Positions 6,711 through 53,082 of a stretch of 64,000 nt of DNA are shown piece after piece. This DNA is from a virus. The position numbers were made by a program, and so were the translations under genes. The stretch lies in UHGV virus genome UHGV-0371537. One strand, given 5' to 3'. The notes beneath the pieces were generated by a model that did not search any database, was not told the origin of the DNA, and saw only the letters and a list, made by a program, of their open reading frames with translations. Each line of letters opens with the position of its first letter. Position 1 is the stretch's first letter.

Positions 6711-6751
6711 CTAAATACCCCTAGATGAAACGAACACATTTAGGGGTATTT
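6711..6751 (+). promoter_or_regulatory. late-promoter-like CTAAATA plus 11-bp hairpin covering the SD region
   Basis: CTAAATACCCCTA (6711-6723) pairs with TAGGGGTATTT (6741-6751); ATG 6755 follows 3 nt later. Confidence 0.5.
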
Positions 6752-6754
6752 GAA

Positions 6755-9736
6755 ATGGCTAATAAACCAACACAGCCTGTTTTCCCTCTCGGTCTGGCGG
6801 CTGAAGAGCAGTCTACTTTGGCTGGTGTCCTCAACACGGGTACGATTGAGCATGGACCAGATGCTGTCCTGACTTTACCAGAGGGTAATGCCAGCGCAGG
6901 ACTCCCGTCTTCCGTTCGCTACAATGCCGACTCCGACGAATTTGAGGGCTTCTATGAAAATGGTGGATGGTTGCCGCTGGGTGGCGGTGGTATCCGCTGG
7001 GAAGTCCTTCCGCATGCCTCTACGGCAACGCTCACTGAAGGGCGAGGCTATCTCATTAATAATACCACAGGGGCATCTACAGTGGTTCTCCCTTCCCCTA
7101 CGCGTATTGGGGATTCCGTTACTATTTGTGATGCTTATGGGAAATTTGCCACTTACCCATTGACCGTGTCTCCTTCTGGAAATAATTTGTATGGCTCCAC
7201 TGAAGACATGGCTATAACAACTGATAACGTATCAGCAACGTTCACTTGGTCTGGACCTGAACAAGGTTGGATTATTACATCCGGCGTCGGTCTTGGCCAA
7301 GGTCGTGTCTACAGTCGTGAAATCTTTACAAAAATTTTGGCGTCTGAAACAAGTTCTGTCGCTCTCAATACTCCACCAACAATTGTGGACGTGTATGCTG
7401 ACGGAAAACGTCTTGCGGAATCCAAATATTCACTAGATGGGAATGTAATCACTTTCAGTCCTTCTTTGCCAGCCAACACAGAACTTCAGGTGATTGAATA
7501 TACTCCTATTCAATTGGGTAATGTCAGTGGTTCTGGTTCTTCTACGATTACCTGGGTCTATAATGGGGGTTCAGCGATTGGTGGTGAAACCGAAATCACG
7601 TTGGACGTCGTTGTTGATGATGTTCCGGCCATTGATATAAACGGAAGTCGCCAGTATAAAAATCTGGGATTCACATTCGATCCATTAACCAGTAAAATCA
7701 CTCTTGCGCAAGAACTGGAACCAGAGGATGAAGTTGTTGTAATTATCAATGGAACACCAAACATCTATAATCAAATTGATTATACTTTGCGGGAAGTTGC
7801 TCGAGCAACCAATGTTAAAGATACAGAGGTCGTTTATTTTAGTGTTGGTGCTGCGTTAAGTGGGTATAAAGTTATTTATGACAAGGAGACGCAAAGGGCT
7901 TATCCCTTGCCTGCTGATATTGTCCCTGGTACTACTGCTGTCAGTCTTAGTTCTTCCGCTATACTTGTGCATTCTGCTGGTAGTGTTGATCTGGGCGCAT
8001 TAGCTGTATCTCGTGAAGAATATGTTACATTGTCTGGGACATTTGATTCTGGTGCTGTCATCAATGTTAAAAATGAATTACTCACCCATACTGATGGAAA
8101 GTATCGTTGGGATGGTACACTTCCTAAAACCGTTGCTCCTGGCTCAACTCTTATGACAACAGGCGGCGTTGGTGTTGGCGCATGGATTAGTGTTGGTGAT
8201 GCTTCATTGAAGTCAGAATTGGCTAAACCTACAGGAGCAGGTTTTTCAGGTTTTGATAAGTCAATTGATTACGAAACTGGTACTGTTGGCAATGCGCTTA
8301 AGAAAATTATAAATGTCAACCCGGATATGTATCCATCATTACAGGATGCGATTGATGCTGCGGCAGCTTTAACAGGTTTAGAACATGCACCAAGTAGTGC
8401 TGCTAACCATCCTGACTGGCTACAACCTAACACTGTAAGCAAAGTTATCAGGCTGAATGGGAAGAAATATCCTATCAGTACGACACTACACATTCACGGA
8501 GATGTTAGCATTGATGCTGGTTTCGGTGGGGTGTACCTCACCGATGACTTCGTTGCAGACTCCTCTGGCTATGCTGTTAAATGCGATAAAGGGACGGGTA
8601 ATCAATACGCTGGGCATATCAGCAACTTATTAATTGATGCCCGTGCAAAAACTGTTAATGGGTTTAAGATATCCGATGGCTATGCTAACAAGTTAGAAGG
8701 CATTTACGTAGCCAACGTTGATGGTCATGGCATCCATATTGCTGGCGGTATGGGTGTGCACCTATTGAAGTTTTATGCTGTTGGTGTATTAAAACCAACT
8801 AATCCGCTCAGCACAGCCCACATTGTTGAAGGTAGCGATCATCAGGTTAGCATGGGTGAAGGTCGTTATTTCCGATTTGGTACCTGGGTTCGTGGTGGTG
8901 GTAATAACAGAATTGGTAAGGTGCACAACTGGGGCATGTATGACGATACAGTCACCGACCAGAACTCAAGGATGAAATGCTGCTTTGTTGTACAGAACTC
9001 AATAAACAATTCCTTCAATCAATGTTTTGCAGATTCTCCATCAAAATGGGACTACACGAAAGCTAATTTAGATCCTGTAGATGGTTATATTAACGGCGGG
9101 ATTGGTTTTTTTATTGATGGTGGAGCCACCGGTAATACGTTCTCTCAATGCCAGACGTTTGTGAATATGAATGCGTTTAATGACGCAGGGTTATCTGCAT
9201 ATGCGGCATCACTAATGCCATTCGCCGTTGGCAGTATCAATTGCTCATTCATTGAGTGTGAAAACTCAAACTCACCAGCATGGGTGGCAAGACTGATAAC
9301 TCATATTTACTCTGTGGATCAGGCATTTACTAACATACTCGCAGCTAAGAATTTTGTTGGTATAGAGTATGATATGGTTTGCAATGGTACAATTTTCAGG
9401 AAAAATGTTGGAGTTCCTGTATTGGTAAGAAATTCAAAGTTCGAGACGCCAACAGCAAGTTATGCGCCTAACTTTTCAGACGCATCTTACATCGCAGCTA
9501 CAGTTACAGGAGATGTAACAATAACACCAGCAGTATTAACAAATACACTAATTGGTTATGTTGAGGTTCTTTTGGCTGTCTATTCAACAACATCTAAAAC
9601 AATAACATTTGGTGCAAATGTTATATTAGCAAGTAGTACCCCATCTTTGACAGCAGCTGGAACACAAGTTTTTAGGTTGTCAACAACTGATGGAGGAACG
9701 ACTTGGTTCTGTAAGTTCGAGAGTGCTTACCCGTAA
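6755..9736 (+). CDS. tailspike protein, long form with N-terminal extension (TSP4-like)
   Basis: Internal anchor domain (aa ~350-510) paralogous to the N-termini of the 9839 and 15080 genes (VSREEYVTL, VKNELLTHT, KYRWDG); track start ATG 6725 lies in a hairpin loop, ATG 6755 follows the CTAAATA motif and hairpin. Confidence 0.8.
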   Translation: MANKPTQPVFPLGLAAEEQSTLAGVLNTGTIEHGPDAVLTLPEGNASAGLPSSVRYNADSDEFEGFYENGGWLPLGGGGIRWEVLPHASTATLTEGRGYLINNTTGASTVVLPSPTRIGDSVTICDAYGKFATYPLTVSPSGNNLYGSTEDMAITTDNVSATFTWSGPEQGWIITSGVGLGQGRVYSREIFTKILASETSSVALNTPPTIVDVYADGKRLAESKYSLDGNVITFSPSLPANTELQVIEYTPIQLGNVSGSGSSTITWVYNGGSAIGGETEITLDVVVDDVPAIDINGSRQYKNLGFTFDPLTSKITLAQELEPEDEVVVIINGTPNIYNQIDYTLREVARATNVKDTEVVYFSVGAALSGYKVIYDKETQRAYPLPADIVPGTTAVSLSSSAILVHSAGSVDLGALAVSREEYVTLSGTFDSGAVINVKNELLTHTDGKYRWDGTLPKTVAPGSTLMTTGGVGVGAWISVGDASLKSELAKPTGAGFSGFDKSIDYETGTVGNALKKIINVNPDMYPSLQDAIDAAAALTGLEHAPSSAANHPDWLQPNTVSKVIRLNGKKYPISTTLHIHGDVSIDAGFGGVYLTDDFVADSSGYAVKCDKGTGNQYAGHISNLLIDARAKTVNGFKISDGYANKLEGIYVANVDGHGIHIAGGMGVHLLKFYAVGVLKPTNPLSTAHIVEGSDHQVSMGEGRYFRFGTWVRGGGNNRIGKVHNWGMYDDTVTDQNSRMKCCFVVQNSINNSFNQCFADSPSKWDYTKANLDPVDGYINGGIGFFIDGGATGNTFSQCQTFVNMNAFNDAGLSAYAASLMPFAVGSINCSFIECENSNSPAWVARLITHIYSVDQAFTNILAAKNFVGIEYDMVCNGTIFRKNVGVPVLVRNSKFETPTASYAPNFSDASYIAATVTGDVTITPAVLTNTLIGYVEVLLAVYSTTSKTITFGANVILASSTPSLTAAGTQVFRLSTTDGGTTWFCKFESAYP

Positions 9737-9740
9737 AACT

Positions 9741-9766
9741 AACCCCCTCTTCGGCAGGGTTCTTGT
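9741..9766 (+). terminator. degenerate copy of the AACCCCGCTTCGGCGGGGTT terminator
   Basis: AACCCCCTCTTCGGCAGGGTT immediately after the tailspike stop at 9736. Confidence 0.35.
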
Positions 9767-9798
9767 TATACCTTTGTTCATAAATTTATTAGTTCAGC

Positions 9799-9834
9799 CT
9801 AAATACCCCATATTGGTCATCCTTTATGGGGTAT
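9799..9834 (+). promoter_or_regulatory. late-promoter-like CTAAATA plus 9-bp hairpin covering the SD region
   Basis: ATACCCCAT (9803-9811) pairs with ATGGGGTAT (9826-9834); ATG 9839. Confidence 0.5.
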
Positions 9835-9838
9835 TATC

Positions 9839-11788
9839 ATGATTTCTCAATTCAATCAACCACGCGGCTCCACTTCCATAGAAGTTAACAAACAATCTAT
9901 CGCTCGAAATTTCGGTGTCAAAGAAGACGAAGTCGTTTATTTCACTGCTGGTATTGATCTCAGTGGATTTAAAGTAATTTATAATGAGTCTACCCAACGG
10001 GCTTATTCTCTTCCTTCAGGTATTGTTTCAGGAACGACTGCTGTTAGTCTTAGTGCTAACGCTGTTCTTATGCACTCAGCTGGTTCTATAGACCTCGGAG
10101 AATTAGCCGTATCTCGTGAAGAATACGTTACATTGCCTGGGTCATTCACCTCGGGTGCTACGCTTAATGTTAAAAATGAATTGCTTACCCATACAACAGG
10201 CAAGTATCGCTGGGACGGGGAATTTCCTAAAACCGTTTCTGCAGGTTCTACCCCTGAATCTGCTGGTGGTGTTGGTCCTAGTGCGTGGGTTAGTGTTGGT
10301 GTTGCTTCTTTAAGAGCAGACCTGGAAAAACCAACAGGGGCAGGATTGATTGGATTTGGCTGTTCTCCATATATAAATAGAAATATTGGAGATGTTCTCC
10401 AGGATATACCAACGAACAAATATTTTGGTGCAAAGTGTGATGGCGTAACTGATGATACTGTAGCTAACCAAACTGCACTTGATTGGTCTGCTGACAATAA
10501 AAGAGATGTTATTTTTGTTGGAAAAAGCTGCATAACAAGCAGACTTGTACACAATTCAGGCTCCAGGGTAACACATCTTGGAGAGATCAAACCTCGTGAT
10601 TTTTCTGATGATGTTGTTATTGAGGTAAAGGACGATGCGTGGCGTGATCCTTACAATGATGGAATAACAGCAATCGATACTGGCGATAGAGTTCATATTG
10701 ATGGTCTATGTATTGCCCCTGACTCTGTAATAGATGCTGTTGGTATTCTTGGCACTGATGGAGTGGATCCGATCATATCAAGATTAAGAACATTCAACAT
10801 GAGAAGGGGAGGAATTAAGATTGTTAAGGGGTATGGATGGAACATATCAAACATTTCAATCATTGCACCTTTTGATCAAAATAACTCTCATGATTATGCA
10901 GGAATTAGGCATGAAACGTCAGATTCATTTTATTCTAGCGTTATAGTTTCAGGATATACTACTGGACTTGATATGCCTGGAAATGCTAATCAAGTATCAA
11001 AGGCCCACTGCTGGGGAATGTCATTACCAGATAGAACCACTCGTAATATGTTATTCGGCCTTAAAATGAGCGGTAGTGGTAATAACGTAGTGCAATTCTA
11101 TTCTGATTCTCCTAAAAAAATTGATAAAACACAAGCTGCAAGCATTACAAATGGTGGGATTGGCTATGTAATTTCTGGTTTTAACAACACATTTTTATCA
11201 CCTAGGAACCTATCTCATCAGGATTGTGGCTTGAAATATGGTAAGGTTTTTCTGATATCTGGTTCTGAGAATACCTTTATTAGCCCCTTAATAGGTGATT
11301 ATGACTACATTGAAGATGATGGATTTTTCACATTTACAGATTCGGCAAGCCCGCTAAACAACTATGTTTATGGTGGCAACATGCAATCTACATATTTGTA
11401 CCCAATTGCAAGTGGTAGCTATAAACCAACTGTAAACATCCCATGCACATACAGCTCTCAAATATATAACCATAATATCATTCAGAAAAATGTTATGGGA
11501 AGAGTTGTTATTACATGCAATATTACAAGTAATTCATCCGACGATCCATTCTATATACAACTGCCACCTTATCTATCAGCTGTATCTGGGATGGCAAGTG
11601 GATCAATAATTAACAACCTTACATCGTCAGTAAGAGCTGATAGCAACCTTTTTGCAGTCGAACCTTATGTTTCAAATGGTAAAATCTACTTCCGTAGATT
11701 ATTTAGATCTGGAGCTGCTGATGATATAAAGCAAAATATGCTTAACACAGGTAATGCTTTCTTTGATATATCAATAAATGCAAGATAA
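9839..11788 (+). CDS. tailspike protein, short form (TSP3-like)
   Basis: N-terminal anchor domain shared with the other three tailspike genes; 649 aa. Confidence 0.8.
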   Translation: MISQFNQPRGSTSIEVNKQSIARNFGVKEDEVVYFTAGIDLSGFKVIYNESTQRAYSLPSGIVSGTTAVSLSANAVLMHSAGSIDLGELAVSREEYVTLPGSFTSGATLNVKNELLTHTTGKYRWDGEFPKTVSAGSTPESAGGVGPSAWVSVGVASLRADLEKPTGAGLIGFGCSPYINRNIGDVLQDIPTNKYFGAKCDGVTDDTVANQTALDWSADNKRDVIFVGKSCITSRLVHNSGSRVTHLGEIKPRDFSDDVVIEVKDDAWRDPYNDGITAIDTGDRVHIDGLCIAPDSVIDAVGILGTDGVDPIISRLRTFNMRRGGIKIVKGYGWNISNISIIAPFDQNNSHDYAGIRHETSDSFYSSVIVSGYTTGLDMPGNANQVSKAHCWGMSLPDRTTRNMLFGLKMSGSGNNVVQFYSDSPKKIDKTQAASITNGGIGYVISGFNNTFLSPRNLSHQDCGLKYGKVFLISGSENTFISPLIGDYDYIEDDGFFTFTDSASPLNNYVYGGNMQSTYLYPIASGSYKPTVNIPCTYSSQIYNHNIIQKNVMGRVVITCNITSNSSDDPFYIQLPPYLSAVSGMASGSIINNLTSSVRADSNLFAVEPYVSNGKIYFRRLFRSGAADDIKQNMLNTGNAFFDISINAR

Positions 11789-11791
11789 ATA

Positions 11792-11822
11792 AGTAGAGCA
11801 GCAACATGATTGCTGCTCTACT
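11792..11822 (+). terminator. perfect 12-bp hairpin after the tailspike stop
   Basis: AGTAGAGCAGCA pairs with TGCTGCTCTACT around a 7-nt loop; weak T-tract. Confidence 0.4.
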
Positions 11823-11834
11823 TTCTCATACAAC

Positions 11835-11978
11835 CTAATTGAAGTTAGTGGGTATATTACAGGAGGTAAAATATTCTTTAGAAGGTTATTCAGAAGCGGC
11901 TCTCCTGTTGATGTTCAGATAACAGATCTGATAACAGGTTATGCATCAATAGACTTGAGCTTTACTTGCCAGCTATAA
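11835..11978 (+). pseudogene. vestigial C-terminal fragment of a tailspike gene
   Basis: Translates to EVSGYITGGKIFFRRLFRSGSPVDVQITDLITGYASIDLSFTCQL*, homologous to the last ~45 aa of the 9839-11788 tailspike (core GKI(F/Y)FRRLFRSG 11 of 12 identical) but divergent at DNA level; no start codon. Confidence 0.6.
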
Positions 11979-11983
11979 ACAAA

Positions 11984-12010
11984 AACCCCGCTTCGGCGGG
12001 GTTAGTTTTA
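11984..12010 (+). terminator. rho-independent terminator (AACCCCGC-TTCG-GCGGGGTT)
   Basis: 8-bp GC-rich stem with TTCG loop followed by T-rich tail. Confidence 0.7.
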
Positions 12011-12278
12011 TCATCAGAATGGTATTGAATCACTGTTGGTAATAGTAGGCTCATTGCCTCTTGGTTGGTTTGGATGCTGTTCAGTATAACCGGTTCCAAC
12101 CAAACCAATGAGGCAGTGGGTAAGGGGGGTTTTTGTTGTACCCCAAACAATTCATTAGGTAGACTGTTTTAGTCAATTACGACTTAACTAACCTGAGAAA
12201 ATCCCTATGGGAAATGAACCAGATAACGTAACTCTAGCCAGACTCGAAGAGAGACTGAGAAACATTTTCGAAAACCAA

Positions 12279-12305
12279 AACCCCGCTTCGGCGGGGTTCT
12301 TATTA
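12279..12305 (+). terminator. rho-independent terminator, second exact copy
   Basis: Identical 20-mer AACCCCGCTTCGGCGGGGTT followed by CTTATTAT. Confidence 0.7.
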
Positions 12306-12336
12306 TATCCATGTTCATAAATTTTATTAGTTCAGG

Positions 12337-12373
12337 CTAAATACCCCATATTGGCAAATCCTCTATGGGGTAT
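12337..12373 (+). promoter_or_regulatory. late-promoter-like CTAAATA plus 9-bp hairpin covering the SD region
   Basis: ATACCCCAT (12341-12349) pairs with ATGGGGTAT (12365-12373); ATG 12380. Confidence 0.5.
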
Positions 12374-12379
12374 CTTCAA

Positions 12380-15022
12380 ATGACCAGAAACGTCGAGAGC
12401 ATCTTTGGAGCGGTCGTAACAGCTCCGCACCAGATTCCATACACTTACACAGCAACGGGCGGAGAGAAGTTTATCTCCCTCCCGTTCTATCCTGTTACGG
12501 GCTTCATCACCATCAATGGGGGTGTTCAGGTTCCGACAGACAATTTCGAAATCGATGGTAACACTGTCAACCTGGGTCGAGCACTTGAGACCGGGGATGT
12601 TGTGTATTGCTTGTTTGACAAGATCCTGTCTCCAGAAGATTATGAAAACGGGATCCGCATCTACAAGTTCCAGACCGTTGGTAACGAGACCTCATTCACC
12701 CCAGACTTCACGACATATGGTGTGCAGTCTCTGTATGTTGACGGGAAGTTCCAGGTGCCGGACGTCAACTACACGTATTCCCCAACCAATGGTGTCGTTA
12801 ATTTCCTGACTGGATCTCCGGCGGCTGGTGTTTGGGTTGTTGCAGAAATGTCTGTGAAGCAGCCAAACATTTCCCCTCTCTTCGATAGAACAATTCAAGA
12901 AGTGGCCAGATCTGCGAAAGTTAAGGACTCGGATGTTGTTATCGCTGTATCCGGTGCTTCACTTTCTTCCAAGAAAGTCATCTTTGATAAAACTGCGCAA
13001 AGATGGTACTCGCTGTCAACCGGGTTGACTTCCACGGTGGTCAGTTTGGTTGATGGAATCCTCACTCACTCTTCAGGTACTGTTGATTTAGGTGCGCTGG
13101 CGGTTACTCGTGGCGAATATTTCACCATGTCTGAAACCTTCACAACCGGGTTCACAATCAGAGTGAAGAATGAGATCGTCAGCGACGGAACATATCTTTA
13201 TCGCTGGGCTGGTAGTTTGCCAAAAGTTGTTTCCGCTGGAACAACCGTGGACAACACCGGGGGTGTGAGTGCGAGTGCCTGGGTGAGATCAGATCAAAGA
13301 ACCATCAGCACCGTCAAGAGACAACTACAGCAATCCTACACGATGGCAGAATTAGTGGCCAAAACTGACATACAGTTGGGCGACTCTTTCCTTTGCTCGG
13401 ACAGGGCATATGGTGTTTATGACGTCGTTTCTTCGGTGGCTTACCCACCAAATGGTTATTCGAACGTAGTCAGCACAGTGAACTCCGGTTTGGTGTTCAG
13501 ACTGCGTGTGGTTGCTAACACAATCGATTTGGAGCAAATTGGTGGTAAGCCTCTCATCTGGGGAACCCAAGAAATCGACTGTAAACAGGCGTTGCAGGAA
13601 GCTTTCTATCTCTTGCTCGACTCCGAGAGCGCGACGGTTGATCTGAAGTCCAACAAATGGTTGCTGTCATCTTATGTGTTCAACGACGTCAAACAGCGCC
13701 GGAAAATTGTTGGTAACAACGCCATTATCTATGGGATGCCAGATGACGGTGTGACCAACTATGATTACCTGGTGAGTACTGCATGGAACTACCAAGACAT
13801 CGAAGGTGTTACGTTCGACTGTCAGTGGAACCCTCGTTATGCATGCTGTCTCCGTATCACTCATGGGTACGGACGATACGATGGCCTGACGATTCGTAAA
13901 GCTCGTTGCGCCATTCAGGTTGGTAAGAGCGAGGAAAGCCGGGTCAGCCTCAGCGAATTCATGTTCACACAACTTCGCACTGAAGAATGTGCGAAAGTCG
14001 CAATTGTTCACGGGCTTTATTCTGTGCTTAACATCAGCGATTCCATCGTGGCTTGCGGCGAGGGCGCTTTCTGGAAAACATATGACTGTACCGGGTTCAC
14101 CATCTATGGTGGTCGCGTATTCCTGATGAAATGTGGGGGCAACAGCAACGTCATCAACTTAGACAACCCTTATGTCTATTGCGCAAATACCACGGTTGCA
14201 GGCGCTCCATATATCGGTTCGTTCAACGCAGTGCAGTGCGACTTTGAATTCAGGACTCGCTTCTGCATCGTGAACGATACGACGACAGTTTATCAAGATT
14301 ACAACCAAGCAGTTGTTCTTGATTCTTGCCGAATTGGTGTATTCGCCAGCCTGGACTCTCGTGCGTTGAATTTCTTTGAAAGTAACGTCGGATACCGTGG
14401 GCAGCTCCGGATTAAGAACACAGATCTTCTGTTCGACACCACCGTGTCTCTGCCGCCGATCAAAGCTGGTGGGCATACCATCGTGGATATTGATTATGAT
14501 TCGATCTACATTCCTAACTTCAGGGGTCCAAAGATGGTCAGCTTCGCTGGTTATCCTCCGGTTCTTCCAGTCGGGATTGTGTTCCAGAACAACGTTGGGG
14601 CTGACACTCCTCTTTCTGGTAACCAGTTTGTGAACTTTTCTAACCCGATCATTGGCTTGGATTCTGATTCCTCTCTGCTTAGCAGCAACTGGAACTCGTC
14701 CACCAAGAAATTCGAATTGCCTCCTGGTGGCTTGAGTGATGTTACCGTCACTGTACGTCTGACATTGAAAGATCCTGCCACCGCCCCGGTGACAGCGTTG
14801 GTGGAATACAACAACGGCACAGCGATTGGACTTGCATTCGGGACAATCCCGGTTGGATCCAAAGATCTTTTGATCACTGGCAGGATCCGGGATCTTCGAG
14901 ATACAGCCCAGATATATTGTATCACGAGTTCTACAGCGGCGTACACCCTCAGCAATACCGGGGCATATGACTCTACTATGACAATTGAGGCCAGCATTCG
15001 GCCTCCGAAGACTAAAAGTTAA
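12380..15022 (+). CDS. tailspike protein, long form (TSP2-like)
   Basis: Internal anchor domain (VTRGEYFTM, VKNEIVSDGTYLYRW); track start ATG 12365 lies in the 3-prime arm of the promoter-proximal hairpin, ATG 12380 is in frame 15 nt downstream. Confidence 0.75.
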   Translation: MTRNVESIFGAVVTAPHQIPYTYTATGGEKFISLPFYPVTGFITINGGVQVPTDNFEIDGNTVNLGRALETGDVVYCLFDKILSPEDYENGIRIYKFQTVGNETSFTPDFTTYGVQSLYVDGKFQVPDVNYTYSPTNGVVNFLTGSPAAGVWVVAEMSVKQPNISPLFDRTIQEVARSAKVKDSDVVIAVSGASLSSKKVIFDKTAQRWYSLSTGLTSTVVSLVDGILTHSSGTVDLGALAVTRGEYFTMSETFTTGFTIRVKNEIVSDGTYLYRWAGSLPKVVSAGTTVDNTGGVSASAWVRSDQRTISTVKRQLQQSYTMAELVAKTDIQLGDSFLCSDRAYGVYDVVSSVAYPPNGYSNVVSTVNSGLVFRLRVVANTIDLEQIGGKPLIWGTQEIDCKQALQEAFYLLLDSESATVDLKSNKWLLSSYVFNDVKQRRKIVGNNAIIYGMPDDGVTNYDYLVSTAWNYQDIEGVTFDCQWNPRYACCLRITHGYGRYDGLTIRKARCAIQVGKSEESRVSLSEFMFTQLRTEECAKVAIVHGLYSVLNISDSIVACGEGAFWKTYDCTGFTIYGGRVFLMKCGGNSNVINLDNPYVYCANTTVAGAPYIGSFNAVQCDFEFRTRFCIVNDTTTVYQDYNQAVVLDSCRIGVFASLDSRALNFFESNVGYRGQLRIKNTDLLFDTTVSLPPIKAGGHTIVDIDYDSIYIPNFRGPKMVSFAGYPPVLPVGIVFQNNVGADTPLSGNQFVNFSNPIIGLDSDSSLLSSNWNSSTKKFELPPGGLSDVTVTVRLTLKDPATAPVTALVEYNNGTAIGLAFGTIPVGSKDLLITGRIRDLRDTAQIYCITSSTAAYTLSNTGAYDSTMTIEASIRPPKTKS

Positions 15023-23959: not shown

Positions 23960-24676
23960 CTAAATACCTTCAAACGTATTTCTGATAAATTCGATAATAC
24001 GACTTTCATGTTTAAACCATTCAGTCGCACCGTCAAATCCCTTGTAGTTCATACTAAATGACATTTCATGAGCCTTTCTTTCCAGTTCTAACACGAATTG
24101 TCCATCATTTGACTTAAAAACTTCTAGAACATTGAACTCAAATGGAGTTGATCTTCTTAAAGATTTAAATCTATTATTTGGTGAATTGGACACCCCGATT
24201 TTCATACAGCCTTCTTCGCTGGTCAATATGTACAAATAACCGACTTTAAAAGGATTGTATCCGGAAGTTGCGCAGTAGGGGCACCAACTTTTACCATTCA
24301 CCAAATTACAGTATCTTGACTCCCAACGATGTCCTTCTGAACATTCCATAAGGCAAACTGTCACATTATCTTTATACTTTCCACCAATAAATTCTATGAA
24401 TTTACCACCGTTGGTTTCAGCATGGTCGGTTATTCTCTTTTTAGATTCTTGCTGGGTATTTCTCTTGTTGCCATTACATGTTGGGCACCAACTGCCTTTA
24501 TTGATCAAATTTCCATAAGATGCTGAACTCCATTGATGCCCTTCACCACACTGTAATATACATTTTGTCTGATTAGTGATAAATTTATCACCAACGAATC
24601 CCTGGAACAAACCACCTTTAGATAAGGCATATTTGTGAAGATTTTGAATAGCAGTTTCTTCTGTCAGGATTTTCAT
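23960..24676 (-). CDS. T5orf172 (GIY-YIG superfamily) domain protein with two N-terminal zinc ribbons; homing-endonuclease-like
   Basis: Two repeats C-x4-C..GH.W....C.L.N.KSWCP.C then GYLYIL....MKIGVSN....R..SLRR.....EWF, typical of T5orf172/MUG113; opposite strand between two neck genes. Confidence 0.65.
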   Translation of the reverse strand: MKILTEETAIQNLHKYALSKGGLFQGFVGDKFITNQTKCILQCGEGHQWSSASYGNLINKGSWCPTCNGNKRNTQQESKKRITDHAETNGGKFIEFIGGKYKDNVTVCLMECSEGHRWESRYCNLVNGKSWCPYCATSGYNPFKVGYLYILTSEEGCMKIGVSNSPNNRFKSLRRSTPFEFNVLEVFKSNDGQFVLELERKAHEMSFSMNYKGFDGATEWFKHESRIIEFIRNTFEGI

Positions 24677-35786: not shown

Positions 35787-35838
35787 AACTACTAAGTAAT
35801 TTCAACTTAACTGAATATCAATGTAAGGAATGAGCATC

Positions 35839-37161
35839 ATGGCTAAGAAACTTGTAACCGAAGAAATGCGCAAAGAGTGGCTGCCTGTTCTTCAAAAAGA
35901 ATCTGAACAGATCCAGCCTCTGTCTGCCGAAAACGTCGCTGTCCGTCTCCTGGAAAACCAGGCTGAGTGGAACGCCAAAAACCTGGGTGAATCCGAAGCC
36001 CCTGGCTCTCTGAACAACACTGTCGGTAAATGGCAGCCAGTTCTGATTGACATGGCTAAACGTCTGGCTCCGATCAACATCGCGATGGACTTCTTCGGCG
36101 TTCAGCCGCTGTCTGGTCCTGACGGTCAGATCTTCGCACTGCGTGCTCGCCAGGGCGTTGCAGATAGTTCCAACACCGCGCAGTCTCGTAAAGAACTGTT
36201 CATGCAGGAAGCTGATTCCGGCTACTCTGGTGACGGTACTGTACAGGCTGGCGACCCATCTGGCTTTACCCAGGCTGAAATCGAAGGTTCCGGCGCTGGT
36301 ACAACCACCATCGGTAAAGGTATGCCAAGCACCGACGCTGAACTGCTGGGTACTACCACCAACCCATGGGCGCGTGTTGGTATCACCGTGCAGAAAGCTA
36401 CCGTGACTGCGAAGTCTCGCGGCCTGTACGCTGACTACAGCCATGAGCTGCGCCAGGACATGATGGCGATTCACGGCGAAGACGTGGACAGCATCCTGTC
36501 TGACGTGATGGTCACTGAAATTCAGGCGGAAATGAACCGTGAGTTTATCCGCACCATGAACTTCAGCGCAGTACGCTTCAAAAAATTCGGCGCAAACGGC
36601 ATCGTGGACATCTCCACCGATATCTCCGGTCGTTGGGCTCTGGAAAAATGGAAGTACATGACTTTCATGCTGGAAGTTGAAGCGAACGGTATCGCCGTTG
36701 ACACCCGTCGTGGTAAAGGGAACCGTGTTCTGTGTTCTCCGAACGTAGCATCTGCCCTGGCGATGTCCGGCATGCTGGATTACGCTCCGGCGCTGCAGGA
36801 AAACACCAAGCTGGCGATCGACCCAACTGGCCAGACCTTCGCTGGTGTTCTGTCTAACGGCATGCGCGTTTACATCGACCCGTATGCAGTAGCAGAGTAC
36901 ATCACCCTGGCATACAAAGGCGCGACCGCGCTGGATGCTGGTATCTTCTTCGCGCCGTATGTGCCGCTGGAAATGTACCGCACCCAGGGTGAAACCACCT
37001 TCAGCCCACGTATGGCGTTCAAGACCCGCTACGGGATTTGTGCTAACCCATTCGTTCAGATCCCAGCGAACCAGGATCCACAGGTCTATGTGACTGCGGA
37101 TGGTATCGCCCAGGACAGCAACCCTTACTTCCGTAAAGGGTTAATAAAAGGCCTGTTTTAA
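35839..37161 (+). CDS. gp23: major capsid protein, T4 gp23-like
   Basis: GVQPLSGPDGQIFALRA, KTRYGICANPF and C-terminal YFRKG resemble T4 gp23; ATG 35839 preferred over 35830 on SD spacing. Confidence 0.9.
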   Translation: MAKKLVTEEMRKEWLPVLQKESEQIQPLSAENVAVRLLENQAEWNAKNLGESEAPGSLNNTVGKWQPVLIDMAKRLAPINIAMDFFGVQPLSGPDGQIFALRARQGVADSSNTAQSRKELFMQEADSGYSGDGTVQAGDPSGFTQAEIEGSGAGTTTIGKGMPSTDAELLGTTTNPWARVGITVQKATVTAKSRGLYADYSHELRQDMMAIHGEDVDSILSDVMVTEIQAEMNREFIRTMNFSAVRFKKFGANGIVDISTDISGRWALEKWKYMTFMLEVEANGIAVDTRRGKGNRVLCSPNVASALAMSGMLDYAPALQENTKLAIDPTGQTFAGVLSNGMRVYIDPYAVAEYITLAYKGATALDAGIFFAPYVPLEMYRTQGETTFSPRMAFKTRYGICANPFVQIPANQDPQVYVTADGIAQDSNPYFRKGLIKGLF

Positions 37162-37190
37162 TAATTAAAACAATGGCTTACGTCCTAACA

Positions 37191-37220
37191 AACCCCGCTT
37201 CGGCGGGGTTTTTGTTTGTT
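37191..37220 (+). terminator. rho-independent terminator after the major capsid gene, third exact copy
   Basis: AACCCCGCTTCGGCGGGGTT followed by TTTGTTTGTT. Confidence 0.75.
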
Positions 37221-37268
37221 CATAATACCAAACAGGTTATACTAGATACCATACGAAGGAGAACAATT

Positions 37269-38741
37269 ATGTATCAGGTAATCTGTAGTGTCTGTCATGA
37301 ACAGTTCAAAGCATCCAGGAAAGATAAGAAATTTTGTTCAGATGGTTGTAAAACGTTTTCTAGCAACACATTGAAAAATCTATCACCGGAATTTGTTGCT
37401 GATGCGACGTGCCTTTCGGATGAAGAATCTTATCGTCAATTTTTCCATAAACACATGTTCACTAAGAACAATAAATTGGATATTCAGAAATGCAAATCTA
37501 ATTTGTTAATGAAGCACATCAGATTGGACCTGTTGATATTTGCCAACGCCCATAACACCCTACAAGATCTGGCCTGTAAAGTCACAGCATGGTTACACAA
37601 TAGAACCGTGAAAATGTGCCCTGTGTGTTCCAAAGAAACCAACTTTTACATCAATGACAAAGATTACAGAACATATTGTTCCGAAGAATGTTATCAGATT
37701 TCTATGTGTAAAGGCGGGGTTGGTCGGAAAGCTATAGAGGCTTCAAATATATCCAAATATGGGAGCTGCTCTACACTACAACTACCTGGTGTGAGGAAGA
37801 AGGCGTTGATAACATTACAAGAACGTTATGGTGTTGACAATCCCATGAAAAACTCGATCATATTGAAACGTGCATTGTTTAACAATGGTTCTGTCAGGAA
37901 TAAGAAATCTTCTTATGAAAAAGAAATATCCGAGTTCCTCACCTCAATAGGAGTTGTGAACAAGGTTTCTAATTACAGTATATTGTCAGGCAAACAATTG
38001 GATATCTACTGCCCGGAACACAAACTTGCAATAGAATTCAATGGGTTGTACTGGCATTCAGAAGTTTTTAAAGAAAAACGGTATCATCTAGAAAAGACTG
38101 AAATGTGTGAATCTCAGGGTATCCAGTTGATCCATATTTGGGAAGACGAATGGGCTGAGAAACAGGATGTGGTCAAATCTCTTCTGAAGGCAAAACTCGG
38201 CATTAAAACGCCTGTCTCATACGCTCGCCAACATAAAGTTGTTTGGGGTAATATAAACGGTGTGAGGGAGTTTCTAGACGCCCATCATATACAAGGTTCC
38301 GTGTCGTCCACCCACCACTTATCGCTAATTGATAAGGCTGGTGTGATACAGGCCGTGATGTTGTTTACCAAAAGGAAAGATGGCCTGGAATTAGTCAGAT
38401 TTGCCTCTAATGATTGCCACGGGGCGTTCAGTAAACTTCTATCGCACTTCAGAAGGAAATTTGTTGGTGTCCCAATCTATTCTTTTGGCGACAGGTGTGT
38501 CGTAAGCAGGCTGTCGAACATTTACCTATCCCACAGGTTCATAGAAGAGGAAGTACAGAAGCCGGATTACAAATATCACAAGCCTGGTACATTTATGCGT
38601 GAGCACAAGTTCGGTTTCAGAAAAGATTCATTTGCTCGGATGGGTTATGACATAGAAGGCAAAACAGAAAGCCAGTTAGCAACCGAAGCCGGGCTGGTCA
38701 GGATTTGGAATTGTGGTCTGATCAAATATACCTTGAACTAA
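37269..38741 (+). CDS. freestanding homing-endonuclease-like protein with zinc fingers and a Vsr-like PD-(D/E)xK domain
   Basis: LAIEFNGLYWHSE matches the Vsr/DUF559 signature; CxxC/CxxxC clusters at the N-terminus; track start 37173 would read through the terminator at 37191. Confidence 0.65.
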   Translation: MYQVICSVCHEQFKASRKDKKFCSDGCKTFSSNTLKNLSPEFVADATCLSDEESYRQFFHKHMFTKNNKLDIQKCKSNLLMKHIRLDLLIFANAHNTLQDLACKVTAWLHNRTVKMCPVCSKETNFYINDKDYRTYCSEECYQISMCKGGVGRKAIEASNISKYGSCSTLQLPGVRKKALITLQERYGVDNPMKNSIILKRALFNNGSVRNKKSSYEKEISEFLTSIGVVNKVSNYSILSGKQLDIYCPEHKLAIEFNGLYWHSEVFKEKRYHLEKTEMCESQGIQLIHIWEDEWAEKQDVVKSLLKAKLGIKTPVSYARQHKVVWGNINGVREFLDAHHIQGSVSSTHHLSLIDKAGVIQAVMLFTKRKDGLELVRFASNDCHGAFSKLLSHFRRKFVGVPIYSFGDRCVVSRLSNIYLSHRFIEEEVQKPDYKYHKPGTFMREHKFGFRKDSFARMGYDIEGKTESQLATEAGLVRIWNCGLIKYTLN

Positions 38742-38804
38742 AAGATCATTTCAATAACGGGGTGAGAGGTATTATTGCCCCGTCTACTATCCGAGGGCTG
38801 TGAC

Positions 38805-39032
38805 ATGTACCTGAAAAAGATTGTGAAGAAGCCGAAAGGCGAAGTGATCGAAGTATGCCTTATTGAGGCTTATGTTGACTCCTGGAACAACGAGCAGCGT
38901 TACTTCATGGTCAACACATTGGTGTATGTCCCAGCCTCTCACCTTAACCGTGATTTCATCACACCCGAGAACATCGTCCGTTGGGAGATTGCAACGCAGT
39001 CCGACACCGACGAACACCCTATTTTGAACTGA
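38805..39032 (+). CDS. hypothetical protein (75 aa)
   Basis: ATG 38805 with GAGGG SD; track start is TTG 38775. Confidence 0.4.
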   Translation: MYLKKIVKKPKGEVIEVCLIEAYVDSWNNEQRYFMVNTLVYVPASHLNRDFITPENIVRWEIATQSDTDEHPILN

Positions 39033-39044
39033 AGGATCTATATC

Positions 39045-39488
39045 ATGTCAAAAGAGAAATACATCTTCATCAGCCCAGCCACGAAGGAGTTCTTTATCTC
39101 CGAAGTGAAAGATCGCGTTGAGAAGTTCCGCTACATGCGCAGCTATGGCCTGGCATCTGGTGAAATCGATTACCAGTCACTGGACAATGATCGCCAAGAT
39201 CTGATTGATGATGGCTGGCGTTTAGTCCCTTCCCCTCAGTATATCCACATCAAGCTGTACTACATGAAGGACAGCGGGAAGTATTACTCTGAAGGCGAAC
39301 TCATCCTCAATCGTGGCGAGGCTGAAGCTGAACCTGCTAAGTCCTGGATGGTCACTATGGATAAAATCCGCTATCTGCTCGACTCAGGCAATTTGCCCGG
39401 TTTGGTTAAAGGTGCCAGGTACGAGGTCTTCGTGACCGGAGAAGGGCATCCAGGTGGTTATCCACATCTGTTCCGCATTAACAACTGA
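39045..39488 (+). CDS. hypothetical protein (147 aa)
   Basis: ORF with upstream purine-rich SD. Confidence 0.5.
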   Translation: MSKEKYIFISPATKEFFISEVKDRVEKFRYMRSYGLASGEIDYQSLDNDRQDLIDDGWRLVPSPQYIHIKLYYMKDSGKYYSEGELILNRGEAEAEPAKSWMVTMDKIRYLLDSGNLPGLVKGARYEVFVTGEGHPGGYPHLFRINN

Positions 39489-39495
39489 GGTCATC

Positions 39496-39732
39496 ATGAG
39501 AATCAAAAAGATCGGCGCAAGTCCGCTCACTGGGACAATCTTCCAGGGCACCTTGAACACCAAAACCAGCATGTGGGTTGGTGAGAAGACCGACGTGACA
39601 GAGGACTGCGTGGCTGCCACGGCTGAACACATGCGACACATCAATAAAGACTACTGCTTCCCAACGACGGATGGTAAGTTCTTGGTGCTGAGCGCCGAGG
39701 TTCACGAGACCCTTCCTGATCGCTTCAAATAA
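39496..39732 (+). CDS. hypothetical protein (78 aa)
   Basis: ATG 39496 with GAGG SD; track start GTG 39454 overlaps the upstream gene. Confidence 0.4.
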   Translation: MRIKKIGASPLTGTIFQGTLNTKTSMWVGEKTDVTEDCVAATAEHMRHINKDYCFPTTDGKFLVLSAEVHETLPDRFK

Positions 39733-39835
39733 ATTTTAAATTTATTCAATAAACGGGGTTTACTTCTTCAATAAACCCCGTATACTTCATTCCATAAGCA
39801 GCACAACACTGACTCTGAAATGAAGGAACTACACC

Positions 39836-40132
39836 ATGAACAATATGCCAACCACCAAAACTGCTCTGGAAATCGATTCTCGCTTTATCGTTGAAGCATG
39901 GGCAAATAGCCAAAATGCGTATGTGTACTCCCTTTATATCGGCGACACCTATATTTCTTGTCTCGGTATCGACGGTTCTGTGAACGAGCACGGCGTGAAC
40001 GAGCGCTATACCAAGAAGCAGGCTATCGCGGATGCTACCAAATTCGCAACCGACATTCTGGATCGCATCAAAGCAGGCAAGCCGTACAAACGCGGTGAAA
40101 AGGGCTATGCCACCCAATTGCTCGGCGCTTGA
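39836..40132 (+). CDS. hypothetical protein (98 aa)
   Basis: ORF in small-gene cluster. Confidence 0.45.
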   Translation: MNNMPTTKTALEIDSRFIVEAWANSQNAYVYSLYIGDTYISCLGIDGSVNEHGVNERYTKKQAIADATKFATDILDRIKAGKPYKRGEKGYATQLLGA

Positions 40133-52152: not shown

Positions 52153-53082
52153 ATGTTTTACGAATTATTGATTTCTAAAGGCGGTAAACCGCATTTTATC
52201 AAGAAGTATTTGAGGATGGTTCAATCTTTCAAATATTCTGATAGTGACTACACTGAATTACACCACATCCTTCCCAAGAGCATGTTCCCTGAATATTCTA
52301 AAGATAAGATAAATTTGGTTCGATTAACAGGCAGACAACATTATCTTGTCCATGTATGCTTGGCCTTGGCTTTCCCAAACACGAGAATGGTGTATGCTGT
52401 TGTAGCTATGAGAAAGGGAGGAAGAAGAAATAAATCAGGTATTCGGTTTAATTCTCATTTGTATGAAAGTTTCAGAATTAAATTCAGCGAACAACTATCT
52501 TTACAATGGAAAGGGGTTTCTCGGTTTGTGGGTAAAGACAACCCAATGTATGGGAGAAGAGGAAAGAATAATCCCCAATATGGGTATAAGAGAACTCCAG
52601 AGCAAGTCAAGAAAATTACCAAAGGATTGATGAAAATCCATGAAAGGATGGCTTCTGATCCGGAATATAAAAGAGAAGTTTTAGAGCAGCGTCGTACCAA
52701 TACGGATTTAAAGCAATTTTCTGAGCGTTCCCGCCAAGCAAAACTCGGTGAACTCAATCCTAATTATGGGAAGGACTTAACCAACTCTTTCACACCGGAA
52801 CAACGCGCCAAACAGAAAGAAAACGCTCAGAAAGGCATGTTGGCTAAGATGCCTTGGGAGAAGGGTAAATGGAACCCCGACAATGACGTATATTGGGAGA
52901 AAGCTGATCAATTCCTTGAAGCCCTGAATACGATGAAACGTTCAGAAGCCCTCTTGTTCGTGTATGGAACAAAAGATCTGAAGGCGTTTAATGCCACCAG
53001 TGGGATAATCGAACGTTTCAATAAAGGCTGGGAACCATTAAAATGCGTAAAATGGTTAAAAAGATATAAGGGTGAAAAATGA
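52153..53082 (+). CDS. HNH homing endonuclease
   Basis: ELHHILPKSMFPEYSKDKINLVRLTGRQHYLVH is an HNH core; repeated NP.YG(R/K) NUMOD-like motifs. Confidence 0.7.
   Translation: MFYELLISKGGKPHFIKKYLRMVQSFKYSDSDYTELHHILPKSMFPEYSKDKINLVRLTGRQHYLVHVCLALAFPNTRMVYAVVAMRKGGRRNKSGIRFNSHLYESFRIKFSEQLSLQWKGVSRFVGKDNPMYGRRGKNNPQYGYKRTPEQVKKITKGLMKIHERMASDPEYKREVLEQRRTNTDLKQFSERSRQAKLGELNPNYGKDLTNSFTPEQRAKQKENAQKGMLAKMPWEKGKWNPDNDVYWEKADQFLEALNTMKRSEALLFVYGTKDLKAFNATSGIIERFNKGWEPLKCVKWLKRYKGEK

Follow-up and report, generated by a model that had tools for sequence, protein, structure and literature searches.

The window analysed here, a stretch of 64,000 nucleotides (nt) of the virus genome UHGV-0371537, comes from a phage of the Agtrevirus type in the family Ackermannviridae, which shares about 90-91% nucleotide identity with the nearest database genomes and represents a distinct lineage. 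The open reading frame (ORF) at positions 37269-38741 on the plus strand of this window, which encodes a protein of 490 amino acids (aa), is the subject of this report; the features described around it lie on the same strand unless stated otherwise. The gene directly upstream (35830-37161) is a conserved neighbour that encodes a major capsid protein of the Gp23 type (Pfam PF07068, E 8e-124; phrog_138, E 7e-144). It is followed by an intrinsic terminator at 37190-37220, composed of the hairpin AAACCCCGC-TTCG-GCGGGGTTT and a T-run; the hairpin (37190-37211) has a stem of 9 base pairs (bp), six of them GC pairs, and the terminator is conserved in all relatives (27 loci aligned). A Shine-Dalgarno sequence, GAAGGAG, is located at 37255-37261, 7 nt ahead of the ATG at 37269. 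Position 37269 is the likely start: the alternative longer ORF, which opens at 37173, would have to cross the capsid terminator, and the annotated length of the orthologues is 490-491 aa. In the first two thirds of the gene, counted from its 5' end, the GC content is 0.37-0.39 compared with 0.486 for the window, which makes this part a low-GC island. A possible RNA hairpin around 37233-37288 that might occlude the ribosome-binding site reached a z-score of only -1.75 and was not relied on, and no paralogue of the 490-aa protein was found in the window (tblastn against all 64 kb). An earlier reading, made from the letters alone and called here the sequence-only reading, had described a 490-aa ORF directly after the capsid gene and its strong terminator, in the position that a Seg endonuclease occupies in T4. 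The coordinates, the PF07068 match and the 9-bp stem agree with this description, and in T4 the GIY-YIG gene segD (locus L050, 3062-3733) is indeed located directly past gene 23.

The 490-aa protein matched phrog_3339, annotated as "homing endonuclease", over its full length with an E value of 5.3e-157, the best stretch being residues 205-489. Its amino acid identity is 99.6% with gp188 of the Shigella phage ChubbyThor and 90.6% with F-LimVII of the Dickeya phage LIMEstone1, both of which are encoded at the same locus. F-LimVII was classed as a free-standing Hef-like homing endonuclease in 2012 (PMC3296691, Table 1), and the Hef-type enzymes of phages were assigned to the Vsr-like EDxHD family, of which I-Bth0305I is the prototype (Taylor et al., 2011; PMC3239194). 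The gene family and the orthologue are therefore already known from the literature and from the annotation of close relatives, and the gene is not a new candidate. Based on these matches, ORF 37269-38741 is most probably a free-standing Hef-like homing endonuclease gene of the Vsr-like (EDxHD) branch and an orthologue of F-LimVII; we put the probability of the full homing model, as developed below, at about 0.8. The sequence-only reading had proposed a free-standing homing endonuclease of a Vsr-like family. This proposal is borne out by the phrog_3339 match, by the sporadic presence of the gene and by a patch of near identity shared with ChubbyThor, but the enzyme it put forward had already been described.

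F-LimVII (ORF137 of vB_DsoM_LIMEstone1) and the window gene share locus, length and domains, and can be regarded as the same gene. Other orthologues are present in ChubbyThor, in pSal-SNUABM-02 and in the Escherichia coli phages RPN242, YX22, LHE287, ZQ1 and AV101; the amino acid identity across the orthologues is 88-99.6%, and all of them are located past the capsid gene and its terminator, ahead of the same small genes. Between LIMEstone1 and the window, the N-terminal third of the gene diverges fastest, with 86% nucleotide identity compared with 96% for the C-terminal domain. Hef itself is an endonuclease of phage U5 that replaces mobE and cleaves nrdB, and it is the member of the family for which site-specific homing has been demonstrated by experiment (PMC2988022). 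In U5, as well as at nrdA-nrdB in Acj9 and FL44, Hef is likewise encoded by a free-standing gene flanked by conserved genes; these Hef genes differ from the window gene in the insertion site, nrdA/nrdB instead of capsid gene/small ORFs, and in the N-terminal DNA-binding region. The Hef of the T-even phage U5 was reportedly the subject of a study by Sandegren et al. in 2005.

The domain structure of the protein was derived from an AlphaFold2 model built on 77 homologues, which has a mean predicted local distance difference test score (pLDDT) of 94.3 and a single disordered linker at residues 206-212. The catalytic domain, residues 213-309 (37905-38195), adopts a Vsr-type PD-(D/E)xK fold with the signature residues E217, D245, E256, N258, H263, H273, K276 and D293. 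The motif LAIEFNGLYWHSE, which the sequence-only reading had singled out as being of Vsr/DUF559 type, occupies residues 253-265 and falls within weak but consistent matches to the DUF559, MTES_1575 and Vsr models; on the isolated domain, DUF559 scored 24.9 bits against a cut-off of 20.6. A search with profile hidden Markov models had been suggested as a check by the sequence-only reading, which named a lack of catalytic residues on proper alignment among the findings that would speak against it. Of the EDxHD signature, E217 is kept in 75 of the 77 sequences and D245 and H263 in all 77, and the counterparts of D245 and H263 in the aligned I-Bth0305I structure (PDB 3R3P) are the positions of D196A and H213A; the final Asp is replaced. 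H273 and K276 (residues 273-276, window 38085-38096) are likewise invariant in 77/77 homologues.

Compared with I-Bth0305I, which is intron-encoded and acts as a dimer on a pseudopalindromic site, the window gene is free-standing and its product is arranged differently. I-Bth0305I has an N-terminal NUMOD/HTH region, a C-terminal nuclease and no GNAT domain; in the window protein two zinc fingers and a DUF7487-type repeat, with no NUMOD, precede a central nuclease, and a GNAT domain follows. The N-terminal CxxC clusters noticed by the sequence-only reading are two Cys4 clusters. The first (C6, C9, C23 and C27; 37284-37349) contains an FCS-like motif, and the model folds it as a beta-hairpin followed by a helix with pLDDT above 90. 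The second (C117, C120, C137 and C141; 37617-37691) matches the YacG treble-clef model of Pfam over residues 117-148 with E 8.8e-5, and its C120 is conserved in at least 90% of the family. Residues 154-204 (37728-37880) form a helical repeat of the DUF7487 type (PF24308), with E 1.3e-3 in the window protein and down to 6e-102 in homologues, which is presumed to be part of the DNA-binding region. The N-terminal region as a whole (residues 1-205) is the most variable part of the family, ranging from 32 to 489 aa with a mean identity of 23% to the query, as expected of the part that recognizes the target.

The sequence-only reading had treated the protein as consisting of two parts, zinc fingers and nuclease. 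Both parts are present, but a third one, which makes up one third of the protein, was missed: the C-terminal approximately 170 aa (residues 317-490; 38217-38738) form a Mom-like domain with the GNAT fold, conserved as strongly as the nuclease. Taken alone, this domain had no match in Pfam or NCBIfam even at E <= 10, so that it was recognised only through structure and profile-profile comparison. The Mom model PF25680 was likewise not matched by the window protein at E <= 10; it matched 18 of the 77 homologues, with a best E value of 4.8e-9. When the family profile was compared with an alignment of 30 Mom sequences by hhalign, the probability was 94.3% (E 1e-7), and the profile of the isolated domain gave 95.8% (E 7e-9) over 129 columns; these values supersede the 38% obtained with a single sequence against Mom of phage Mu. 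Residues H340, R377, S388, D408, R409 and Y419 align with H58, R111, S124, D149, R151 and Y159 of Mu Mom, mutation of which abolishes or strongly reduces Mom activity (PMC13219725). In the family these six residues are conserved in 100%, 100%, 73%, 99%, 68% and 100% of the members, respectively, and all six are kept in 37 of the 77 members, including the window protein. Mu Mom (PDB 8BV8) is a stand-alone dimer that transfers glycine from Gly-tRNA to the N6 of adenine. Here the domain is fused to a nuclease, and two of the positions essential in Mom vary across the Hef-like family.

The nuclease and the Mom-like domain together form a core of about 285 aa that is tightly fixed in length (276-294 aa). 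A tblastn search with the 286-aa core found it in 418 phage records, 388 of which cover at least 80% of it. These include Tequatrovirus FL44 and Acj9, in which the core is located at nrdA-nrdB, the classical Hef position, with 35% identity over 95-97% of the query. One GenBank record of the core is labelled "putative nuclease/acetyltransferase". Homologues of the core are also carried by the jumbo phages K64-1, phiR1-37 and PBS1 and by Lak phages. Fusions of Mom domains to nucleases of the REase fold in jumbo phages were reported by Iyer et al. (2021; PMC7824862). These fusions are of the same two-domain type, a GNAT domain of the Mom family joined to a REase-fold nuclease; they were read as restriction-modification units and were not tied to Hef or to homing, whereas the window gene shows a homing-type footprint. 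In our literature search no paper was found that connects the Mom-nuclease fusion with Hef or homing. The experimentally defined Hef enzymes and the "Mom-REase fusions" of jumbo phages appear to be one protein family.

The most likely role of the Mom-like domain is in DNA binding, base flipping or dimerisation. It is possible, but rather improbable, that the domain is catalytically active and gives adenines an N6-acyl mark (of the glycyl or carbamoylmethyl type) in or close to the site that the enzyme itself recognises. If this were true, Hef-like elements would be single-chain selfish genes that cut others and mark self, and such self-marking would explain the immunity of carriers in spite of the lack of a visible target polymorphism, merging the homing and the Mom-REase interpretations.

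The distribution of the gene speaks for mobility. An orthologue is present in 25 of the 273-287 phage records that agree closely with the window in the capsid gene and its flanks (about 9%), and in three of 20 close loci in IMG/VR. The gene is thus not universally conserved, and the presence/absence polymorphism that the sequence-only reading had suggested looking for among related genomes does exist. The carriers are spread over Limestonevirus and Agtrevirus and include phages of Dickeya, Shigella, Salmonella and E. coli; each of the 25 has an intact, full-length ORF. The gene has its own ORF in an intergenic position and lies neither in an intron nor in an intein. According to BLAST breakpoints and the alignment of 27 loci, the left junction of the cassette is at 37213-37219, just past the T-run of the terminator, and the right junction is at 38749, where a conserved intergenic element (38749-38783) begins upstream of the next gene (38805-39032); with this element the similarity to endonuclease-free relatives resumes. 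This 35-nt element occurs as a single copy in the window, which does not support it as a recombination repeat, and no meaningful repeats flank the cassette. At the same site, the endonuclease-free phages Ag3 (locus L001, 1876-2842) and CAU_YEP3 (locus L005, 1889-2860) contain about 970 bp with three small ORFs, so that the acquisition of the endonuclease was a replacement, not a simple insertion. Genomes of the LIMEstone type contain three or four paralogues, and Campylobacter phages 10-12 copies.

Other endonuclease genes occupy the same place. Salmonella phage STP07 has a GIY-YIG endonuclease there, fGh-Ecl02 and PC3 have a Hef paralogue with 45-51% identity, and in Vibrio phage K397, which has a capsid protein of 66% identity, a Hef-like gene of its own follows the capsid gene (locus L048, 2325-3629). 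The GIY-YIG enzymes SegD of T4 and that of STP07 are likewise encoded by free-standing genes immediately downstream of the major capsid gene, but they belong to an unrelated catalytic family, and in T4 segD has the opposite orientation. Homing endonucleases have thus settled repeatedly in the position downstream of the capsid gene. A Hef-like gene with 31% identity was also observed after the capsid gene in an IMG/VR contig, in the opposite orientation (locus L025, 1691-2668, minus strand).

A natural transfer of the cassette can be followed in ChubbyThor. Between 36871 and 38762 the window differs from ChubbyThor at only 8 positions in 1,892 bp (99.6% identity) on a background of roughly 90%, and outside this tract the two differ by 3-24 positions per 100 bp. 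The tract spans the last 291 bp of the capsid gene (36871-37161), the terminator and the entire endonuclease gene. A three-way comparison with the endonuclease-free Ag3 shows which of the genomes changed. ChubbyThor and Ag3 share 99.3% identity in the middle part of the capsid gene (36130-36730) and 99-100% from about 38763 to 39500; over 36730-37161 ChubbyThor is only about 93% identical to Ag3 but 99.7% identical to the window. This pattern identifies ChubbyThor as an Ag3-like genome with a cassette from a window-like donor. The 1.53-kb cassette it received replaced the 965-bp segment of small ORFs present in Ag3, and was accompanied by at least 345 bp of upstream flank, comprising the 3' end of the capsid gene and the terminator, and by at most about 20 bp of downstream flank.

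Such a tract is the pattern expected from the repair of a double-strand break with co-conversion, and as a single natural event it is consistent with homing. Because co-conversion is found almost only upstream, a break on the side of the capsid gene is suggested, and the cut site would most likely fall within the final approximately 300-480 bp of this gene, or else at the terminator, again judging from one event. The palindromic terminator itself was considered as the recognition site and is not supported, since its hairpin is identical in carriers and non-carriers.

Taken together, these features suggest how the element may spread. The variable N-terminal region, with its two zinc fingers and helical repeats, would read a specific DNA site in gene-free relatives, and the central Vsr-fold domain, with D245, E256, H263 and H273, would cut the gene-free DNA during mixed infection; for the latter we infer cutting from the fold, from the conserved residues and from the experiments on U5 Hef and I-Bth0305I. 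Recombinational repair off the carrier genome would then copy the 1.53-kb cassette and the adjacent flank into the cut genome. The Mom-like GNAT domain, as part of the conserved core, might support cleavage as a module for binding double-stranded DNA, for base flipping and/or for dimerisation. No promoter above chance was found for the endonuclease gene, so that expression would most simply be achieved by read-through of the capsid terminator, and the protein would probably be made in this way late in infection.

Several observations weigh against this homing model or are not accounted for by it. The last, metal-binding Asp of EDxHD (D222 of I-Bth0305I, equivalent to D97 of Vsr) is not conserved, and no alignment puts an Asp there: the profile alignment has the invariant H273 at this position, the pairwise alignment has E275, whose column varies between N, E and D. 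The Hef branch may have the signature E-D-x-H-H instead of E-D-x-H-D. Over the final 420 bp of the capsid gene and the terminator, no nucleotide upstream of the junction discriminates seven carriers from 19 non-carriers, so that self-immunity is not accounted for by a target polymorphism in this stretch. Classical homing models need no intact Mom-like active site. With regard to expression, sigma-70-like sites are at chance level and the late-promoter motif TATAAATA is absent from 36-40 kb. Finally, the ChubbyThor patch could in principle have arisen by ordinary homologous recombination in a mixed infection, with no endonuclease involved.

The last point becomes an alternative of its own if the gene is taken as an inactive or decaying relic that was spread passively, the patch being ordinary recombination between co-infecting phages. 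Ackermannviridae genomes are mosaic, with identity ranging from 72 to 99% along the region, and some endonuclease genes in Dickeya phages carry deletions or frameshifts (PMC6267328). Against it, the ORF is undamaged in every carrier, all catalytic and structural invariants of the family are present and the structure model is highly confident, and, on the right side, patch and cassette coincide to about 20 bp, a heterologous replacement being part of the patch, as break repair produces. A relic is therefore considered very unlikely. A housekeeping role as a Vsr-type mismatch-repair nickase, or an identity as an HNH endonuclease, is effectively refuted. It draws on the weak matches to Vsr models, the label of ChubbyThor gp188 and a match to phrog_559 ("HNH endonuclease", E 6e-53). 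A true Vsr is ruled out by scores below the cut-offs (21 bits against 97.85 for TIGR00632; 18.6-21.2 against 27 for Pfam Vsr), and an HNH enzyme by the absence of any HNH Pfam domain at E <= 1 and by a fold that is PD-(D/E)xK, not beta-beta-alpha-Me; the architecture and the sporadic distribution are also unlike those of a repair gene.

The more serious competitor to the homing model is a weapon of conflict between genomes, in which the single polypeptide would act as a restriction-modification or exclusion system: the Mom-like domain would mark the phage's own adenines, the nuclease would degrade unmodified DNA of the host or of superinfecting phages, and conflict would be the primary function. 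Exactly such a role was proposed for Mom-REase fusions by Iyer et al. (2021; PMC7824862), Mom acts on double-stranded DNA (PMC13219725), and the six key residues of Mom are present in the window protein, four of them (H340, R377, D408 and Y419) being 99-100% conserved. On the other hand, S388 and R409, which are essential in Mom, are kept in only 73% and 68% of the family. Long, hypervariable and modular N-terminal DNA-binding regions are typical of site-specific homing enzymes, and the family forms many divergent paralogues per genome at different intergenic sites beside conserved genes. The gene is missing from about 90% of the close relatives, the conversion footprint is centred on it, and U5 Hef has been shown to be a site-specific homing enzyme. 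Among the defence-system models of PADLOC only "HEase" was returned. A primary role as a weapon is unlikely on this evidence, and it should be added that conflict and homing are not mutually exclusive.

Compared with the prior knowledge of the family, the present analysis adds a residue-level check of the nuclease with its putative E-D-x-H-H variant, a well-resolved conversion tract of natural origin pointing to the 3' end of the capsid gene as the target region, and a link between Hef-type homing endonucleases and Mom-REase fusions. ChubbyThor, Ag3 and the window would together provide a clean natural example of the homing of a free-standing endonuclease with one-sided co-conversion into an essential capsid gene, and the tract reduces the region in which to look for the target to a few hundred base pairs, in line with the cleavage assay on the 3' region of the capsid gene that the sequence-only reading had suggested. 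Joining Hef and the Mom-REase fusions makes the presence of a working DNA-modifying domain in a homing endonuclease directly testable. For annotation, the ORF should be named a Hef-like (Vsr-fold) homing endonuclease, which corrects the labels in relatives. ChubbyThor gp188 (locus L004, 1939-3411) is labelled "putative HNH endonuclease", which is wrong given the lack of an HNH domain and the Vsr-like PD-(D/E)xK fold, and several orthologues are labelled "hypothetical protein".

Some further elements were observed in the window. About 1 kb downstream of the endonuclease gene, the ORF at 39836-40132 (98 aa; 39840-40131) is a second presence/absence polymorphism: it is absent from ChubbyThor, Ag3 and LIMEstone1 (coverage 0.02) and present in CAU_YEP3, STP07 and pSal-SNUABM-02. 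A gene at 23960-24676 on the minus strand, located in a low-GC island (minimum 0.36) between two neck/connector genes on the opposite strand, encodes an endonuclease-like protein of 238 aa that matches the GIY-YIG-related models T5orf172 and MUG113 (Pfam E 1e-7 and 4e-7) as well as phrog_681, and that probably is an additional free-standing homing endonuclease. A third low-GC island (0.36) contains the gene at 52153-53082 on the plus strand (309 aa); it has a match to phrog_655 "homing endonuclease" with E 2e-63 and a NUMOD3 motif, and is likely a further homing endonuclease gene. The longest low-GC stretch of the window (8900-12400, down to 0.35) spans the distal portions of three tailspike genes in a row (6725-9736, 9839-11788 and 12365-15022), as would fit receptor-binding modules that are exchanged horizontally. 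Finally, two hairpin-like intergenic elements downstream of the endonuclease gene, at 38751-38783 and 39742-39785, consist of TCAATAA(A)CGGGG followed by its complement and may be a shared intergenic signal.

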